Position numbers and translations under genes: made by a program | Assembly: GCF_963921235.1 (NCBI RefSeq) | Contig: NC_086097.1 | Span: 154,754,001 to 154,818,000 of the forward strand | DNA length: 64,000 bases | Direction: 5' to 3' | From: Mobula hypostoma | Lineage: Eukaryota | Notes under the pieces: model-generated | Told to the model about the DNA's origin: nothing | The model's input: the letters and a program-made list of their open reading frames with translations, nothing else | Databases searched by the model: none | In this document: positions 34,867 through 45,024 of the stretch, one piece after another | How positions within the stretch are numbered: the stretch's first letter is position 1 | Layout: each line of letters begins with the position of its first letter

Positions 34867-36856
34867 CTGGGCAAGAAGAAAGAAAATCACAATGTTATTA
34901 TGTTTTTCCTAACATGTAAATTGGTTATTTTTCATGAACTCTAGTCTCCATTCAGTGATGAACAATCAGGAATGACCAAAGGGCCAACAAGAAGCCATAA
35001 TTGTTAATAAAACACCATTAGTCAACATTTTAGGGGGTTTTTAAAGTTTTATTGCATTTGGGACACAGAGTCGATTTGTATTTTTTTTAAAACTATGTAA
35101 CTAACAGCCTTTTAGCAATATGACAACCAGACAATAAACGCATCCAGAAGATTAGAGTGTTTTAGGCATTTGTTAGTATGATATTTAAAAACTAAAAGTC
35201 TGATACTAACAATTGGTAAAATAATTCAGCCATAGAAGAAGTGATTGTGACATCAACAAATTTGCATAACGGCAAATAATTTGCAATGATAACATCCACA
35301 GGTTGTGAAAGGGACAAAATAAATAGAGGAAGTTTTTGTTGTTTGCATGGTTAAACAGCAGTTCAAATAAATTCATTCCAAATCTCAAAGTGAGACGAGT
35401 TTCATCACCCTCCATACCCTCTGCTTTTGGTGAGTAATGAATGGTGGTAGAGCAACGCTTAGTGAAATATAGAGGTCAGGCAGCCTTTGTTGAAAATGTC
35501 ACTATATCGTCAAGTCTGAGTAAAAAGTCATGATGGATGCTTTCTGTGGAGGACATTAAATTTATTACTGTTCACAAATTGCTTTGTAATTGTTTTGAGA
35601 GCTTACTGACAAGGAATTATTCCAAGCTAGATTTTAACAAGTATAACTACTGCCTTGATATTTCACGAGTACATAAACATTTTGATCCAAATGCAAATTT
35701 GCCAGAAAAGCATTTTATCTCCACACAGTCTCTTATTAAAAATGCAGTGTTTGTGTCTGTCCCTTTATTCTGGTGTATGTTCATTGATGGAGATTAATGT
35801 GTTGATCTTCTGTTCTTGGAAAATTTAAATCATTTCACATGGAACAGGGGAGAATGCTAAAGCAGAATGGCAGTGAATGGGCACATAAAATGAGTTATTA
35901 ATGAAAGAATAGTATTAATAAATAGTTTGCCTTATGAAACAAAGAGAAGAACATTAGCATTCTTTCAGAGTCATGTGTTCACAGTGCCTCTTCTAGATGT
36001 AAGCAAGCTCTGGTCATATTGTTATCCACAAGTGATGGAAACATCCTGTCATGATGACAGCAAATTATAAAATGTCATTTCAACAATTACTTGGCATTTT
36101 GAGAAATATGAAGATAACAGCAAAAGATAATGATCCATAAACTTAATACAACATTTTCAAAGTAATGAAGTTAATTATGATGTGCTAATAATTGGAGAAT
36201 AGGATGTGAAACCTGATTTATTGGCCTGAAAAGTGACCCGTGGAATCAACTGTGCTTGGAGTGGATACTTCAAATATTCCCAGTGAAGCTGGCAGTCAAG
36301 TGCAATAAGTGAGATCAAGAGATTGAGTGAATTCATAATCTTTTGTATAATTTCAGGAATATTAGACAGAAGCATATGTTCATAGGGGAGCTTTAAAACT
36401 GGTTTGTATCCAATGTAAGAGGAAACTTTGTGCCAAGTGTTGCATTGAGAGTTACGAGCTTCAGTAAAGAATATCCTTTTTTTAAAAAACTCTTCTTGTG
36501 CATTTATGTAGGTGGCAACACACAAAAAGAAAGCAAATTTTAATTTAACCTGGATCTCAGTTCCTTCAGTCAGGGGCTAGACCTATACTTACAGGCCTAC
36601 TGAGTAAAATTGATGAAATTAACTCAAATTTAGACCGACATTATGCTATCCTGCATCATTTGGAATGGAGCTGAGACAGAATACATAGTAACCCGTTTCC
36701 TTTTATCAAATGTGCTGATGGACATGCTTATAAAAATCAACACATAAAAATTAAATTTCTGTTACCTTAAAACCCAAAGCACAACATATCTTTAATTACT
36801 TGACTTAAATTTGCTTCCAAAAAACAGTACTTTTGACAATTTATCATTTAACTTAC

Positions 36857-36934
36857 TGATGGTCCAGGGATTCCTTCACCTGGAGGTCCCTTTTCACCAG
36901 TCATCCCTGGTATTCCAGGATCCCCTGGATCACC
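36857..36934 (-). CDS. COL22A1: Collagen exon, 78 bp: GDPGDPGIPGMTGEKGPPGEGIPGPS (Gly-X-Gly imperfection)
   Basis: ttgcag|GGT...TCA|gtaagt. Confidence 0.95.
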
Positions 36935-37586
36935 CTGCAAGGAGGAAAGCAATGGATCATATTAGGGCATGAGAATGAATAATTTGCTGCATTCTAATTT
37001 GTTATTTTTATGTGTTATCTTCGTGGGTACCGGAAACTCTTGGAGACACAGGAGATAACACGACAGCACATGCAGGAGCAATTCAGTGGGTTGAATCATC
37101 TGTGTGCGGGGTGGGGGGGTGTGGAGGGAAGAATTGTTGATACTTCGGTTTGGCACAGTCTTGATGCAGGGTCTGAAATGTCATCAATTCCTTTCCCTGT
37201 GCATATGCTACTTGACCCATTGAGTTTCTCCAGCAGGTAGTAGCATTGTAAATAACCGTCGAAGGTTTCATAATATTGAATATAGGTAGACATTTTTTTT
37301 TGCTCTAAGGTTTATGGCTATTCTTAGCATTGTAAACTCTTGAAGATTTCATTTCCTCTCTGGTCTTGATGCTTCTAGTTGTGGAGGAGCCAAAACTAGT
37401 TTCATAATTAAAAGGTGAGGTTTATTGAAAAGTAACCATTGGTTATAGCTAACCTCAAACTACACTTGATCACAATTGCATAAATCTTTTGAGAACTCCT
37501 TACAAAATTGAAGAAGACATAGAATTTATAACATTGAATATTACAGTACAACAACACCTTCAGTCCTTGATGTTGTGAACTAATTC

Positions 37587-38231
37587 CAGGGGTGGTGAAT
37601 CTTTTTGAGAATGTGTGCCCAAATTGGCAATAATCTCCTCAAAAATTCCTCTCATGTCATGGTAATTTTGAGCAGAGATTATCATCGATTAACAAATTAG
37701 TAAAAAAGAATTATGGACTTTTTTTTTAAAAAAAGGAAAGAGGTTGAGCCCTGTTTCTTATTTACACGTATTCACTGTTTTACTATTAATACAAGTGTAA
37801 CAGAGACAGATTGAAATCAATGAGGCATTTTATAAATCCAGTTCAAAAATTATTCATAATTTTTAAAAGGACAATTGAAAAATAACATCATATCTAAATA
37901 GTATTGTTATTGTAACTGGTTACTATCCAAGCACTGATTTGTATACCAGGCCAGTGTGGATTTCAAACCCGATCATCAAACATCATGTATTCTAACAATT
38001 GCCTAGCTGGTGCCAAGCTCACATGAGCTGTTTACTGTGAAAACGACTTCAGTGCTGTTGTGTTGTAAGAAAAATACTTTGCTGCTTTCTTTGGCAGTAA
38101 AGATAATCATTATGTACCTTTTTATAATGGGTTGGATTTAAAGAATCGTGAGCTGGTACTGCATGTCACAGTGCCAACAAAATTTTGTATGTGCCATTTT
38201 GAACATGCATGCCATAGGTTTGCCATTCCCG
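37587..38231. mobile_element. Degraded non-autonomous hAT-like element
   Basis: Imperfect TIRs caggggtggtgaa / tttgccattcccg; no recognisable TSD. Confidence 0.45.
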
Positions 38232-38639
38232 AATTAAGCCAATTACATCCACTCCTTTCTGCTTGTACTTGGTCCATATCTCTCTATTCTCTGCATATTG
38301 ATGTGCCTCTCTAAGAGCCTTCTACTTGACATTTAAATTTACTTGGCACTTTATCCATAAAGTGACATTGCCGACAGTGCAATTGTCCCTCAATGGAATG
38401 TCAAAGTCTAGATGTTTGAATTTGGTGACAAGTGTAATATGGAAATTCATGGAAGAGGTTACAGGTGTGCAAATGACCGGCAATAAATAGATTATGATTT
38501 AAAAGAAACAGGATACATGGGTGAGAAAAACATTCAGGAACGAAAAAAGGAAAAGGAATGCAGCTAGTTTATAGTGTAGCTACGTAAACACTATGGCTAC
38601 AGAAATACATACCTCTAACACATCTCAGACATATCTTAG

Positions 38640-39072
38640 AAACAGATCATTTCCTCCCTGCTTTCCACTGGGATTGCTCCTTCTGTGAATCCCTTGGCTT
38701 TTGTCCCTCCCTATTAATCCCCCTCCTGGCACTTAACCCTGCAAGTGGAAAAGGTGCTATACCTGCCATTCACCTCCTCCCTCACCTCCATTCAGGGATC
38801 CCAACAGTTCTTCCACGTGAGGCAACACTTCACCTGAGACCAATGGCCAACCATTTTAATTCCCATTACAATTCTGACACAACGCTTCATGGCCACCTCT
38901 ACTGCCACAATGGAGCCACTCTTAAGGTTGGAGGAGCAGAATCAAAATAAGGTTTGTTATCACTGGTACGTGTCGTGAAATCAGTTAACTTTGAAGCCAC
39001 AGCAACACCTCATATTCCATCTGGGTAGCCTCCAAATTGATGGCATGAACATTAATTTCTCAAACTTCTGGT
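38640..39072 (+). mobile_element. Degraded Penelope-like GIY-YIG fragment
   Basis: Similar to 4480-4970 (gtgaggcaacacttcacctg; ctgggtagcctccaa..gatggcatgaacatt). Confidence 0.7.
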
Positions 39073-39808
39073 AATTTTCCAGAAGGTGATGAAGCAGAAA
39101 CAGAAAAGGGAACGAATATAGGCAGACAGAACCACAAAGATGCTGCATGCAAGAATCTATCACCATGAAAAGGCCCACAAAAGAACAACTGATAATTTCA
39201 ATTTCAATAGAATTTTTATTTGTTACTTTCAATATCTTCTCCACACAGGTCCACTTCATATCTTTGTGTCTTCTGGCTTCAGCTCAGACTTTTACTAAAT
39301 TCCACTTCATTTTGAACTCCTACTTTCAAGCATACACATATACTCGGGGTTTCTTACTTAGCATTTTCTCCCTGCTTCGATTCAGGCTCACACCTCTGAA
39401 GCCTGTGTCTTTGCAATTTGGCATTTTCTCTCAGCTTTCTTTCTGGCTCAACACTTTGAAGTCCATTTTAAGTTCCAAGCATGACCTCTCTGACACCTTG
39501 TTCAGGTTCAGAAAGCACACCTACTGCTTGCTGATTTCATCAAAGAGACCTAACTTACGTAACTGGTCTTTTAGCATTATTTAGCCCCATCTCAACAGAT
39601 GGCCAGCAATACAACGATACCTAATAAGGGATAAAAAGGGTCAAATGTACAAATTAGGTCACATGTGCACTTCAATACCATGAAAGGTCATGAAATGCAG
39701 GCAGAAGCACTGTATACCAAAATGGTCATGATACCATATAAGGATATGTGTTAAGCATTTGTACGCATCACCATCAGTGACAGGGGGGAAATTGCCACTC
39801 GTGCCATG

Positions 39809-39815
39809 TATAAAA
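39809..39815 (+). promoter_or_regulatory. TATA box (TATAAAA) of the protamine-like gene
   Basis: Consensus TATAAAA starting 60 nt upstream of the ATG; an Inr-like GCAGT lies ~30 nt downstream (39838-39842). Confidence 0.7.
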
Positions 39816-39868
39816 TGCCAACGTTTCTGAAGTGTTAGCAGTAGTCAGAGCTAAGCCAAAGCAGCAAT

Positions 39869-39973
39869 ATGGCAAGAGGCCAGTCTCGGAAAAGCTCTGG
39901 AAGAGGAAGAAGACGTGTTGGTCGGAGAAGGAGGAGAAGACGTAGAGGGCGAAGAGGAAGGAGAAGTCATTAA
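39869..39973 (+). CDS. Protamine-like sperm nuclear basic protein, 34 aa, intronless, nested antisense in a collagen intron: MARGQSRKSSGRGRRRVGRRRRRRRRGRRGRRSH
   Basis: 18/34 Arg with an R8 tract encoded by mixed codons (CGG/AGA/AGG/CGT/CGA), so not a microsatellite. MAR start, N-terminal Ser cluster, no acidic residues. Kozak gcaatATGG, upstream TATA, downstream AATAAA. Resembles dogfish protamine scylliorhinine Z3 (recalled as ARSRSRRSYGRGRRRGGRRR...). Confidence 0.88.
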   Translation: MARGQSRKSSGRGRRRVGRRRRRRRRGRRGRRSH

Positions 39974-40126
39974 CTCTCTCAAGACATTTCAAATGGAAAA
40001 TAAGCCACATTTGGACCAACGAATATTAAGAGCCAACTACTGCATGAAACATCCTGCTATGTCCTACAATTAGCAGACTGACTTGCCTTGCATGTGAAGA
40101 CTTCATTATCTTGTTGTTTGACAATG

Positions 40127-40132
40127 AATAAA
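40127..40132 (+). terminator. Polyadenylation signal AATAAA of the protamine-like gene
   Basis: First canonical AATAAA after the stop codon, ~150 nt downstream. Confidence 0.65.
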
Positions 40133-40246
40133 AGCATCAGCAATGATGCTGGAAAAAAATATGTGTATGCCTTGATATTTTTAGATAAGAGCATATAGAT
40201 ACAGAAATATACGTACAGTTCCACAATGATCTAGATATTTTCTTAC

Positions 40247-40291
40247 CTTGGGTCCTTGGGGTCCTGGTAATCCAGGTGTACCAGGTTGGCC
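40247..40291 (-). CDS. COL22A1: Collagen exon, 45 bp: GQPGTPGLPGPQGPK
   Basis: ttatag|GGC...AAG|gtaaga. Confidence 0.95.
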
Positions 40292-40462
40292 CTATAAGTA
40301 CAAACATCAATGTTAATGTGCTGAATAACAGTATAAACCCCTGCATGTCTTTTTGTTTAAATTGCCAAGTCAATAGATCCAAACTTTCACTAAATTGAAC
40401 ATTCTTGGTCTTACAACAAAAAGCCTACACTTCCAAACATTGTGTAATATGAGTTAACTTAC

Positions 40463-40567
40463 TGTTTTCCCGGTTATACTTTCACCTGGTGGTCCAGGAA
40501 TTCCAGCTGGCCCAGGGTTACCGGGCGTTCCAGGCACTCCTGGGTCACCATCTTTACCAGGTTCCCC
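40463..40567 (-). CDS. COL22A1: Collagen exon, 105 bp: GEPGKDGDPGVPGTPGNPGPAGIPGPPGESITGKT
   Basis: ctacag|GGG...ACA|gtaagt; 35 aa with a helix interruption. Confidence 0.95.
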
Positions 40568-43065
40568 CTGTAGTAGGCAGTAGAAAGAATGAGAAATAGT
40601 GGAGAGAGGATGACTGTATTTTCCTCTTCACAGCAATCTCACAATTAATGTTGACTAATGGAAATACAAATGGAAATGCAGATTTATAAAACCAGTTCAT
40701 AGTCACACTAAAGATTTGAACCTACTCTGTGAAATCATGTTTCTTTGGCCAGATGCTAGTGACAAGAGACTTCACAGGACAAAATGTAGGCAGAAGGAAT
40801 ATAGGTGACTGGGATTGCTGATGGTATAATTTCATTGTTAGATTAAGATTTTGCACCATGCTTGTAACTTAAACATCGCTTTTCTGTTGAGAACTGCTGA
40901 TTTTAGATGAGTTGTTGGCATGCATCATACATACTTCCTTTCTTAACATACAAGATAGGATTGCCATAGAGTAGTGCAGCTTTGGGACAATTATATTGGA
41001 AAGTCTCATAATGGACAGGACTTCCTGTACTGGAAAGGAAATCTGTCCATTCCCTGTGGTATTGACAAGGTAGATGCCAATATAAAGCCAACAATAACCA
41101 CGAGGGAAGAGTTGGGAATCTAAAGGACAGCTCCAACTCTTTAAAAGGAGTGACTGATGAGAGCAACACAGTTTCTCTGAAGTCCAGCGCCACGTGGAGA
41201 ATGAAAGAATTGACTAAAGACTCGCTGTAAGATCTTGGCTCTTACTGATGTCTACCTGGATAACCGGCATTTATCTAAGGCCAGGTCCAAGCACTCAGAG
41301 CCCATTTGACACATGGGGCACAACGGATATAGTCTTGTCACTAGGGCCCACATGTCACCAGGCATTGCAGGATTTGGGTGTGTTGCGGGCAGGGCCACAA
41401 CAAGTTTCCATGTAACGGATATCCCGGAAGATCCTAATAGTAGGACAAGTTCAATGGCTCAGACCATCTCTTCTAACCATAGTCATTGCATGAGATGCTA
41501 TTAAACTAGGAAAAATAAATTACAGGTTTTCAAAATCTGACCATTAAAACCCGTTCAGGACTTTCAGAAAAAGATCATAAATATTAATGAAAATGCAGAG
41601 TACTGGAAATACCCAGGAGATCACACATTTAATGTTACAAATAAATCTATTAAACAGACAACACAGACATGTTGTGTCACCTAGGCAACCTTGGTTTCCA
41701 CCATACACTGACGTTCACTTTGCTCTGCCCACCGCTTCCCCTCTCTGCAATTTAAACATACATTTGTTTTCTCACTTCTCCAGGTGTGATGAGAGGTCAT
41801 TGATCTGAAGTGTTAACTATTCACCTTTCTCTGCAGATGCTGCTTCAGCTGCTGAACATTCCCCGTGTCTTCTATTTTTATATTAGGTTTCCAACAACTG
41901 CAGAATTTTGATTTTCATTAAAACTTGCTGCTGTTGCCACACCTTTCTCCCCACCTAACCAAAAGGGAATGTCCTCTCAGAGAGCAAATACTTCTCATTC
42001 AACTATTTCGGGAACCGATACTTCCTCATTGTTTTCCTCAAAACCCACTGGCACAAAATCCCTCAAGCACATGGATTTGGATCTGTTTCTAAAAGAGTAA
42101 AATCTCAGTAAAAATTTGTGGCAAGGACAATTATTCAAAGAATTTCACAGCCCACTATCCCCCTAACAGCTTTGTAAAATAACTCTTTGAATAAAATGGG
42201 TTTGCTGAAATTCTGAAATACAAAAAGAATAAAAGTACATCTGGTGAGAAAGAAACAGGTAACATTGTCATTGTCATTAATGTGAAACATTAAGCCTGTG
42301 ACTTTTTCCATAGACGTGGCCTAATTTGTTGACTCACCCAGCACTGTCAGCATTTCAACTTTTATTATTACTATAAGTACTATTTTGACTGAAATTATTT
42401 TAACTATTTCACATGTAAGTTTGAGTCTTATGAACTTGATTCAGGATTTTGAGAAGGTGACTAGGATGATTTATGTGGATGGGGGCTGTAGATGTTGCTT
42501 ACATCGATTTTAGTTTGGTGATTGACAAGATCCTGCATGTTTGGATGTTCAGAATACGTGGGCTCCATGGTGAACTTGTAGTTTTGATTCAAAATTGTCT
42601 TGGACTATGGAAGGAAGTGGGTAGTAGTGGAAAGGTGTTTGTTATTCTGGTTAGATATCTGTGACCAGTGGTGATCCATAGGGTTAGGAACTGGGTCCTC
42701 AATATTTATAATAGATTGGCTGGTTGTTCAGTTTGCAGAGGATACAAAGATGGCGGAGTTGCAGGTGAAGAAAGTTGTCAATGGATCAAACCATCAGTTA
42801 CAGTTGTGAGTGGAGAAATGGCAGGTGGAGTTTAATCCTGGAATCGTGCGTTGTTACAATTTGTGAGTTTGTCAAGTTTAAAGCGGATTTTGCAGAATGA
42901 GTTTCTTACTCAGAAGTGGTGGGTATGCATGCATCAATCTACCTTTAATCCCACCCTCCCATTTAATTTCTAGTCACTTCAAAACAAAAGCATTCCAAAG
43001 GATATTTACGTCTCCATTATTGTCAAGACAACAGGCCTTGTATCTTACGATTAACAGTATCTTAC

Positions 43066-43119
43066 TTTTTCACCTCTGAGACCATCTTTGCCTGGAGGAC
43101 CCGCCACTCCAGGGATTCC
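43066..43119 (-). CDS. COL22A1: Collagen exon, 54 bp: GIPGVAGPPGKDGLRGEK
   Basis: atacag|GGA...AAA|gtaaga. Confidence 0.95.
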
Positions 43120-44434
43120 CTGTATAACAAGGAAACATTAGATATTAATATTTTTTTAAGAAGAAGTGCACCTGTGAAATATCTTTTTCCTGAATGCTGC
43201 CCTGCACACTTACAACCCATCACTCAGAGAGGTCTTGGAAAGGGAGGTGGATTCAACCCTCAAACATTCCTCTGTAGCACCACAGCTCTGAGGGCTGTTT
43301 ACTGAGCTCTGAATAATTGGATGGATAACATGGTGTTTACTAAAGGGAGAAAGAGAAATTCATAAGCATCACAATTGTCTCAGTACTCCACTGTCATATA
43401 GGTTCTGTTAGACAAGGGACCAGGCTGGGGAGTTATCTGAGCAAAGGTATATTCAGCGGACTCTGGGCTTGGAAAGGCTGAGATGGAGTTTCTGAGAGGA
43501 AGCATTGCAAATCTTGTAATTGGCCTCTGAAATGGTGGTTTATGAAATGAGGAATTTGCCAGGCCTGGGTGATTCTCAATAGTAAGGAACAGATGTTTAA
43601 AAATGGGCCAGGTTCAAGGTTCAAGATTCTTTCACTTTATGTGATGCTAGTCAATCTATTCAACTATGCAGGCAAAGCCTCTGTAAGACGATGGCAAAAG
43701 TTGCATTAACAAACTTGACATGACTAATTGTCACATGACCACATGTCCTTTTATTGGTCATCACAACTTAAGCCTAATATGGTCATTCTGACAAATGGTC
43801 AAGCCTCCAGCCATGTACAAACATTTGTAATTCAATCTGCACACTTAATTAAAATAAACATTTGTTGCACCAATAAAAGCTGCTAAACTGCCAATCTCTA
43901 AGATTAGGGTAATAGCAATATACACTAGACCTGAGTAACATGCATTGCATCGTGATTCAAGTAAAAAACTTCAAAATTTCATTTCCAGGTTTGTTATTTA
44001 ATTAATTTCTACCATTTTCCTTCTTTGTCTTTATATCTTGATGCAGTTAGCATAGGTCTCAGGTTGGTGAAACATTTAGTCTTCACATTGACCAATGGCA
44101 GCAAATGGAGTCAATGCTTTTAACAAGTTCAAAATATCCAACCAGCTCAGCTTGCAGGAATATTGATTGATTTGAATCATTTACTTTATTAATGAAGTAT
44201 GAGGGTCAACATAATAAATTATTTTATGAGATTTTATTTCCACCTCTCTTTCTCCCACATCGTGCAACCATTCATTTTTATACTGAGATCAATTACATTT
44301 ATTTGGACAAACATCTCACTCGGTTTCAATCCTGTCACCAGTTCCTCCTGATCTACCTCCAACCAAACAACTCATAAGCTCACATTGGCCATTTGAAAGG
44401 AATTCACTGCCAGCATTGATCTCTTTGCACTTAC

Positions 44435-44479
44435 CACATTTCCTGGGACCCCATGTGGGCCTGGTCTTCCAATTAGACC
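44435..44479 (-). CDS. COL22A1: Collagen exon, 45 bp: GLIGRPGPHGVPGNV
   Basis: ctgcag|GGT...GTG|gtaagt. Confidence 0.95.
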
Positions 44480-45024
44480 CTGCAGTGAGATAGGCGAAAA
44501 CAAATGTATCTCCAGTGTTTAACAATTTAGCCCAGATCGTTCTCTAAATTAATCACTGAAGTAGTTATGAAACAAAATGGTGGCAGTATTGCTTTAAAGC
44601 AATCCTAAGCCATTCACTGCAAGTATTCAGTCAGCAGAAGGCTGTTAATTATAAATGTTACAAACCTCAAGAGAATCATAAACTCAAGCTGATTTCAAAT
44701 TGGTCTCTGTTAAGATGTGGTTTGGAGAATTAGAATGAGCTGAGGGTACATCTTTGCCAACATTGAACTGGAATGGAGTCAGGCAACTCTTGGAGGGATT
44801 TAACTCAAATAGAACTGAGTGTAGCAATGTTTGGTGGGATTACTCACTGGTAGGTGGTGATGGGAGTAATCGAGATGTAGCTGGTGAGGGAAATACTCTG
44901 TAAAGATGCAGTTTGGCTAGTGTTACTAGAGTAAGTGAGCTGGCTGCAGAAGCAATTAGGCAAGTCTACACAGTGTGATATCGAATTGGTTCTCGTATTC
45001 AAAAAGGAATGGAAAAAAATCTCA

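Follow-up and report, generated by a model that had tools for sequence, protein, structure and literature searches.

The stretch of DNA analysed here, which we call the window, covers 64,000 nucleotides (C1:154754001-154818000) of a 3.48-Gb genome. On its plus strand lies a short, arginine-rich open reading frame surrounded by the elements of a compact gene:

39809 to 39815, plus strand: TATA box (TATAAAA) of the protamine-like gene, read from the sequence and absent from the processed copy L002
39846 to 39868, plus strand: 5' untranslated region, placed by the 5' end of L002 at 39846 and by a jump in contig depth in sequencing run X1
39869 to 39973, plus strand: intronless, Arg/Gly/Ser-rich, Cys-free protamine-like frame of 34 codons plus TAA, read from the sequence and kept in frame among the indels listed for runs X1, X4, X8 and X11
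39974 to 40159, plus strand: 3' untranslated region, placed by the ends of L002 and of a second processed copy, L003, and by poly(A) ends in X1
40127 to 40132, plus strand: polyadenylation signal AATAAA, read from the sequence and carried by both processed copies

The TATA box, ATG, 34-residue Arg-rich frame, stop codon and AATAAA that a preliminary description of this DNA had pointed out are all present where it placed them. The frame encodes MARGQSRKSSGRGRRRVGRRRRRRRRGRRGRRSH; its start codon at 39869 is preceded by A at -3 and followed by G at +4, and its stop is a TAA at 39971-39973. It holds 18 Arg and one Lys, with no Asp, Glu or Cys, and Arg, Gly and Ser together make up 28 of its 34 residues; the others include Gln, Lys, Val and His, and there is no Pro. 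Without its Met the predicted peptide would have 33 residues and a mass of 4.08 kDa. The Arg residues form clusters of three, eight, two and two (R3, R8, R2, R2), and Ser stands at positions 6, 9, 10 and 33. The R8 tract does use the four different Arg codons claimed for it (CGG, AGA, AGG and CGT), and the whole frame uses five.

The Arg fraction of 0.53 ranks first among the 622 ATG-initiated frames of at least 20 residues in the window, where the next best reaches 0.31, and none of 100 first-order Markov resamples of the window went beyond 0.35. Net basic charge per residue, at 0.56, is likewise the highest among 3,347 frames of 15-150 residues in 264 kb of the locus (next, 0.40), and no other basic frame stands out in those 264 kb of COL22A1. 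Tandem-repeat calling over 36000-45000 gave seven weak calls, of which one, a 6-bp unit that just reached the minimum score of 30, covers the Arg tract. Since these calls are few and weak, the tract is no plain microsatellite.

The frame lies in an intron of a collagen gene, whose Gly-X-Y exons, with AG/GT ends, occur on the minus strand on both sides of it. Candidate exons of this kind number 41, some overlapping, through the window and upstream of it; those that frame the locus are:

40463 to 40567, minus strand: COL22A1 exon of 105 bp, its donor site forming the joint seen in run X1
40247 to 40291, minus strand: COL22A1 exon of 45 bp, upstream of the host intron, Gly-X-Y with AG/GT ends
36857 to 36934, minus strand: COL22A1 exon of 78 bp, downstream of the host intron, Gly-X-Y with AG/GT ends

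The host intron between the 45-bp and 78-bp exons (36935-40246) is 3,312 bp long, and the poly(A) site of the protamine-like gene comes within about 90 bp of the upstream exon; the intron between the 105-bp and 45-bp exons is 171 nt. A vWA exon that shares the orientation of the collagen exons lies 0.23 Mb upstream. Of 128 proteins compared with it, white shark collagen alpha-1(XXII)-like ranks first, at 95% identity, and those next in rank, at about 61-72%, are mostly other vertebrate collagen XXII and unnamed vWA entries. Further N-terminal exons of collagen XXII-type proteins lie colinear between this exon and the window. FAM135, which is found downstream of COL22A1 in mammals, lies 0.6 Mb downstream on the strand of the host. 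TRAPPC9, another mammalian neighbour of COL22A1, gave a single match, one exon at C1:197219385-197219528. This lies 42 Mb from COL22A1, which argues against full synteny with the mammalian order and suggests a rearrangement relative to that order.

On this evidence the host gene is identifiable as COL22A1 of an elasmobranch. The preliminary description had proposed a gene of elasmobranch origin, antisense in an intron of a collagen XXII-like host. The host stands, through the vWA-exon match, the colinear exons and the position of FAM135; so does the antisense arrangement, with the frame on the plus and the flanking collagen exons on the minus strand; and the origin accords with a vWA exon closest to white shark collagen XXII-like. 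A location apart from the mammalian protamine cluster, whose neighbours are RMI2 and SOCS1, had also been claimed, and agrees with the finding of RMI2 on contig C36 and of the protamine-like gene on C1. Elsewhere in the genome, more than 50 vWA-domain exons are crowded into about 0.55 Mb (C18:139.48-140.02 Mb), which we take to be a large collagen VI-like expansion.

A DNA search of the genome returned at least three matches, comprising the gene itself and two processed copies. The first copy, L002 (C58:62620610-62620908; L002:1493-1800), matches 39846-40146 at 94%. Its first base corresponds to a position 23 bases ahead of the ATG, so that neither the TATA box nor any flank is included, and A8 closes it 14 bases after AATAAA. 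Its frame carries a one-base deletion in codon 11, which is a frameshift, together with the substitutions R15K, R19Q, R25C, R28C and H34P, Gly33 being kept as in relatives; L002 decays where the parent frame does not. Both flanks belong to one LINE family (40 of 3,571 candidates were scored for one flank), and by comparison with one uninterrupted LINE copy the insert replaces about 555 bp of the element in the same sense; a second LINE copy used for comparison aligned with one of the flanks only. The 5' junction shows an overlap of 4-5 bases and there is no target-site duplication. A template switch of the reverse transcriptase is the likely origin, or else an insertion accompanied by a deletion. 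The second copy, L003 (C45:53492277-53492317; L003:1500-1541), consists of 41 bp of the mRNA 3' end and an A-rich tail, with extra AT-rich letters, framed by 21-bp direct repeats; being short, it is weaker evidence of retroposition than L002.

A heritable copy requires an mRNA in germ cells, and the two copies thus indicate germ-line transcription of the gene into a polyadenylated RNA; they also give the strand and the approximate ends of the mRNA. Sex and stage aside, the germ-line expression proposed earlier is in this way borne out by the genome itself. The copies also bear on the suggestion that a match to a dispersed repeat family would speak against a gene, since two of the at least three matches, the gene included, are processed copies. 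We rejected both a dispersed repeat and a microsatellite, given that number of matches and the minimum-score tandem call. The retrocopies and the divergent partner transcript treated below are additions to the preliminary description.

Sequencing runs from four organisms (X1, X4, X8 and X11, from 16 listed) were aligned to 39061-40860. Eleven of the 16 contain part of the stretch, and none is recorded as RNA. X1 carries a spliced collagen mRNA joint at donor 40462 and is therefore RNA. In this run, for which a tissue is not on record, 24,837 of 849,289 contigs fall on the 1.8-kb locus. Over 39841-40080 the depths of the contigs add up to 3e6-9e6, compared with 159 for the promoter and 12-62 for the collagen exons, contig depth being neither an expression ranking nor a source of strand information. 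The block at 39841-40200 dominates, and the jump in depth falls between the bins 39781-39840 and 39841-39900; with the 5' end of L002 this points to a transcription start at about 39840-39846. In 40 X1 contigs, loose poly(A) ends follow position 40159. The expected polyadenylated plus-strand transcript is thus found in X1, in agreement with the tails of L002 and L003, and the depth suggests great abundance. Cleavage occurs at about 40146-40159, L002 giving 40146 followed by A8, the A-run of L003 corresponding to 40153-40157 and X1 giving 40159. The gene has its own TATA promoter region and a polyadenylated plus-strand mRNA of about 300 nt, and it is transcribed in the germ line. Two side observations belong here. 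A genomic A7 run at the poly(A) site (40153-40159) may have been left behind when the gene itself entered the intron by retroposition, or may have arisen by chance. The collagen joint in X1 implies that exon 40247-40291 is 9 nt, or one Gly-X-Y triplet, shorter in that organism.

In X8 a single contig covers 39061-40375, through the gene into a collagen exon, which shows that the gene is nested in the organism of X8 too. All 27 gap letters of X8 are accounted for by listed indels, none of them in the frame, and its long contigs differ from this genome at 74 of 1,315 and 36 of 505 places. X4 covers the whole frame and departs from this genome at four letters, none by C>T or G>A, and by one 3-nt deletion within the Arg run, and X11 covers 39900-40174 with three other letters; each is a single contig, at depths of 7.0 and 4.8, and carry-over from other libraries is possible. 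The deletion, at 39929, occurs in 69 X1 contigs (about 28% of summed depth) as well as in X4, and it may be an allelic length variant, a second copy or an assembly artefact. Among the substitutions listed (40 of 136), the sole difference in the frame common to the four runs is non-synonymous, at 39965, where Ser33 of this genome is Gly in all four and in the retrocopy. Loose ends of X1 also read Gly where this genome has Val17. Being unlike the relatives, Ser33 and Val17 amount to at least two amino-acid changes in this lineage. The predicted reading frame is kept in the relatives: of the frameshifts that had been named as evidence against a gene, none falls in the frame among the indels listed for X1, X4, X8 and X11.

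Could the transcript be a germ-line non-coding RNA, in which a purine-rich stretch reads as Arg and Gly by chance? AGA and AGG make up 13 of the 18 Arg codons, the weak 6-bp repeat overlies the tract, and no database search gave a protein match. However, the ATG of the frame is the first after the start site and stands in a strong context, and five CGN codons are kept, with a CpG observed/expected ratio of 1.04 in the frame versus 0.29 in the host intron. Moreover, the sole indel listed for the frame in the four runs is the in-frame 3-nt deletion, whereas the retrocopy has lost the frame and four Arg codons. We regard a non-coding RNA as highly improbable.

Protein searches were weak or uninformative for a 34-residue, low-complexity query and lent no positive support: a Pfam scan of the peptide gave no family, an exact look-up did not find it, comparison with 1.84 billion protein representatives returned no match, none of 5,465 candidates for a 42-residue open frame reached E <= 10, and an Atlas search gave no usable match. 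A profile search of the genome with Protamine_P1 (PF00260) did not find the locus, and its five sub-threshold matches elsewhere, a repeated 43-codon frame on small contigs, are not protamine-like. A repeated GC-rich unit with open frames of 163-196 codons and a weak Protamine_P1 score is present on the small contigs C140, C148, C169 and C178 (L039-L043). A second protamine gene of the same type was sought by pattern, which recovered the parent and seven simple-repeat matches against 15 in a control, and none emerged. Over 38900-40500 Rfam gave one match, to SNORA69, whose 25 bits (E 0.11) fall short of the 47 required, and a metagenome scan for the host DNA returned nothing. Across the DNA, protein and pattern searches, the protamine-like gene counts as single-copy. 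Short and of low complexity, it escapes profile and similarity searches and is thus probably unannotated.

Upstream of the protamine-like gene, X1 has a second block of depth, at 39181-39540, with values of 6e4-3e5 over most bins. We describe it as a divergent partner, with the following features:

39200 to 39540, minus strand (strand inferred): partner transcription unit, drawn from the X1 depth block and translations, single-copy
39567 to 39573, minus strand: partner TATA box, TATAAAA in X1 and X8, with two letters different in this genome
39215 to 39220, minus strand: partner AATAAA, read from the sequence
39358 to 39461, minus strand: internal duplication with a period of 60 bp (20 codons), 39358-39401 and 39418-39461 being 75% alike
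39574 to 39808, no strand: candidate shared bidirectional promoter, 235 bp between the two TATA positions, one low-depth X1 contig linking both high-depth blocks

The partner TATA box (39573-39567) lies about 32 bases before the edge of the depth block. X1 and X8 share the differences at 39568 and 39571 that make it TATAAAA, and the box is broken in this genome; six of the 12 listed differences from this genome on which X1 and X8 agree fall within 39550-39579. Between the two TATA positions the word GGTCA occurs four times on the plus strand (39639, 39657, 39686 and 39724). Four copies of GGTCA were found in none of 2,242 other segments, but some complex 5-mer occurred four times in 40 of 1,123. 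The GGTCA words at 39639-39728 resemble nuclear-receptor half-sites.

We lean towards reading the partner as a decayed second gene. The perfect TATAAAA that two relatives have at this distance from the edge of the block favours this reading, as do the 20-codon duplication and the pattern of indels: X8 has none within 39291-39603, and those of X1 and X8 fall at 39285-39290, behind the candidate coding part. It is also quite conceivable that the partner is promoter-upstream antisense RNA, a by-product of the very strong protamine promoter, terminated by the first poly(A) signal that it meets. Its start lies on the opposite strand, some 300 bp upstream of where protamine transcription begins, and its summed depth in X1 (6e4-3e5) compares with 3e6-9e6 for the protamine. 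In keeping with a by-product, translations show no intact long frame in this genome, all frames being short or interrupted; no retrocopy or paralogue was found in the genome, and a homologue search with one frame read through its stop gave no candidate.

If the partner is a decayed gene, there is a hint of where it came from. Its 3' part aligns inverted to the 5' region of the protamine-like gene with a score of 47, a value reached by none of 200 shuffles and none of 1,006 real segments, the best of which scored 46. Birth by inverted duplication of the protamine gene is no more than hinted at by this alignment. Two other candidates were discarded. A 163-codon stop-to-stop frame on the plus strand (39093-39584) undergoes a net one-base shift in X8 at 39285-39290, and a collagen terminal exon is at odds with the finding of no joint to the partner and collagen exons at depths of 12-62. 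Directly behind the partner 3' end lies a fragment of a dispersed repeat (38653-39075), with many copies in the 264 kb.

P-type protamines are described as proteins of about 3-10 kDa with 50-70% Arg, in which segments with Ser/Thr phosphorylation sites lie on either side of central runs of 3-11 Arg (PMC8812575, PMC13251019), and salmine contains 65% Arg (PMC6523547). At 4.08 kDa without Met and 53% Arg, with R3, R8, R2 and R2 set among Ser 6, 9, 10 and 33, the predicted peptide falls within this compositional definition. We conclude that this elasmobranch very probably carries, antisense within a COL22A1 intron, a P-type protamine gene that is functional, single-copy and intronless. We propose a model, by analogy with other protamines, where the gene would be switched on after meiosis in spermatids and its mRNA then stored. 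The 33-residue peptide, its Met removed, would be phosphorylated on the N-terminal Ser 6, 9 and 10 and would replace histones, its Arg clusters with Gly hinges binding and neutralising DNA. Post-meiotic transcription, storage, phosphorylation, histone replacement and neutralisation of DNA charge by Arg clusters have their basis in the family (PMC8812575, PMC13251019, PMC11607694). As it has no Cys, the peptide cannot cross-link, and it would be an acid-soluble, non-cross-linked component of the sperm nucleus. Nesting would be tolerated because of weak collagen transcription where the protamine is on; spliced collagen contigs occur at low depth in X1, the same run as the protamine contigs.

Stage and tissue are assigned to the protamine by analogy only, and another small basic protein could be encoded instead, either a transient, transition-type protein of spermatids or a peptide that binds RNA or DNA in somatic cells. 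In the dogfish, several successive protein transitions are reported for spermiogenesis (PMC11607694). Nevertheless, the size, the 53% Arg, the single Lys and the domain layout fit final protamines, and the peptide has no signal peptide-like or folded part. We consider such a protein improbable and retain the protamine gene.

To our knowledge, what has been described of protamines in sharks and rays is limited to proteins and cDNAs of a single dogfish. The literature that we could search, which leaves outside most subscription journals, the home of the dogfish work, contained no chondrichthyan protamine gene or locus, none for scylliorhinine Z3 and no link between a protamine and COL22A1. The protein type is old, but the gene appears undescribed, and so do its nested position, its retrocopies and the divergent partner. 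A wider speculation, which we offer as doubtful, is that the sperm-packing genes of elasmobranchs have their home in this COL22A1 intron. A protamine of the Z3 type and another spermatid gene, so far undescribed and possibly its inverted duplicate, would stand head to head across one 235-bp promoter with repeated nuclear-receptor-type half-sites, the partner being lost in this lineage. If this were true, the lack of synteny with the amniote cluster would be genomic evidence for a separate gain of protamines in cartilaginous fishes. A fixed address between two collagen exons makes an unalignable protein family a question of synteny, and a comparison of this intron across skates, sharks, chimaeras, bony fishes and lampreys may tell whether vertebrate protamines had one origin or several. 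Further, in a group whose testes are staged by cysts, the locus offers a compact promoter and a marker of spermatids, and the broken TATA box of the partner is a natural loss for study.

The two retrocopies resemble processed pseudogenes made by LINEs, and LINE/mRNA chimeric retrotranscripts, in their mRNA-only extent and A tails; L003 shares the direct repeats of processed pseudogenes and L002 a same-sense position inside a LINE. Unlike ordinary processed pseudogenes, L002 lacks a target-site duplication, has taken the place of about 555 bp of LINE and shows an overlap at its 5' junction.

Amniote protamine P1 (PF00260, PRM1) has central Arg clusters flanked by Ser segments and a TATA promoter (PMC8812575, PMC2690471). 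The gene described here is alike in Arg clusters, Ser segments, Arg content and TATA promoter. P1, however, has 50 residues, whereas the peptide here has 34, with no Cys, no intron in its gene and no match to PF00260. The P1 locus has RMI2 as a neighbour, whereas here the gene lies in COL22A1 on C1 and RMI2 is on C36; with no PF00260 match and no RMI2 on C1, we do not place the gene in amniote P1. The protamines of teleosts (salmine, iridine and clupeine) are encoded by intronless genes in multi-copy families. Like the peptide here they have about 30-34 residues and no Cys, but the present gene is single-copy, encodes a Gly-rich peptide with no Pro and is nested in a collagen intron.

The closest comparison is with scylliorhinine Z3, reportedly described by Sautiere et al. 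in 1981 as a Cys-free protamine of the dogfish Scyliorhinus canicula, so that the protein type is said to have been known since then. Z3 has about 31 residues, only Arg, Gly and Ser, with no Cys, an Ala-Arg start and Ser near the N-terminus, and its layout is Gly-Arg-Gly-Arg3 followed by a long Arg run. The peptide here is also Cys-free, rich in Arg, Gly and Ser, and from an elasmobranch; it differs in that Z3 is a sequenced protein of about 31 residues, and the present one a predicted peptide of 33 that includes Gln, Lys, Val and His. The likeness to Z3 is a tentative one, and Gly17 of run X1 presumably brings the relatives closer to the Z3 layout.
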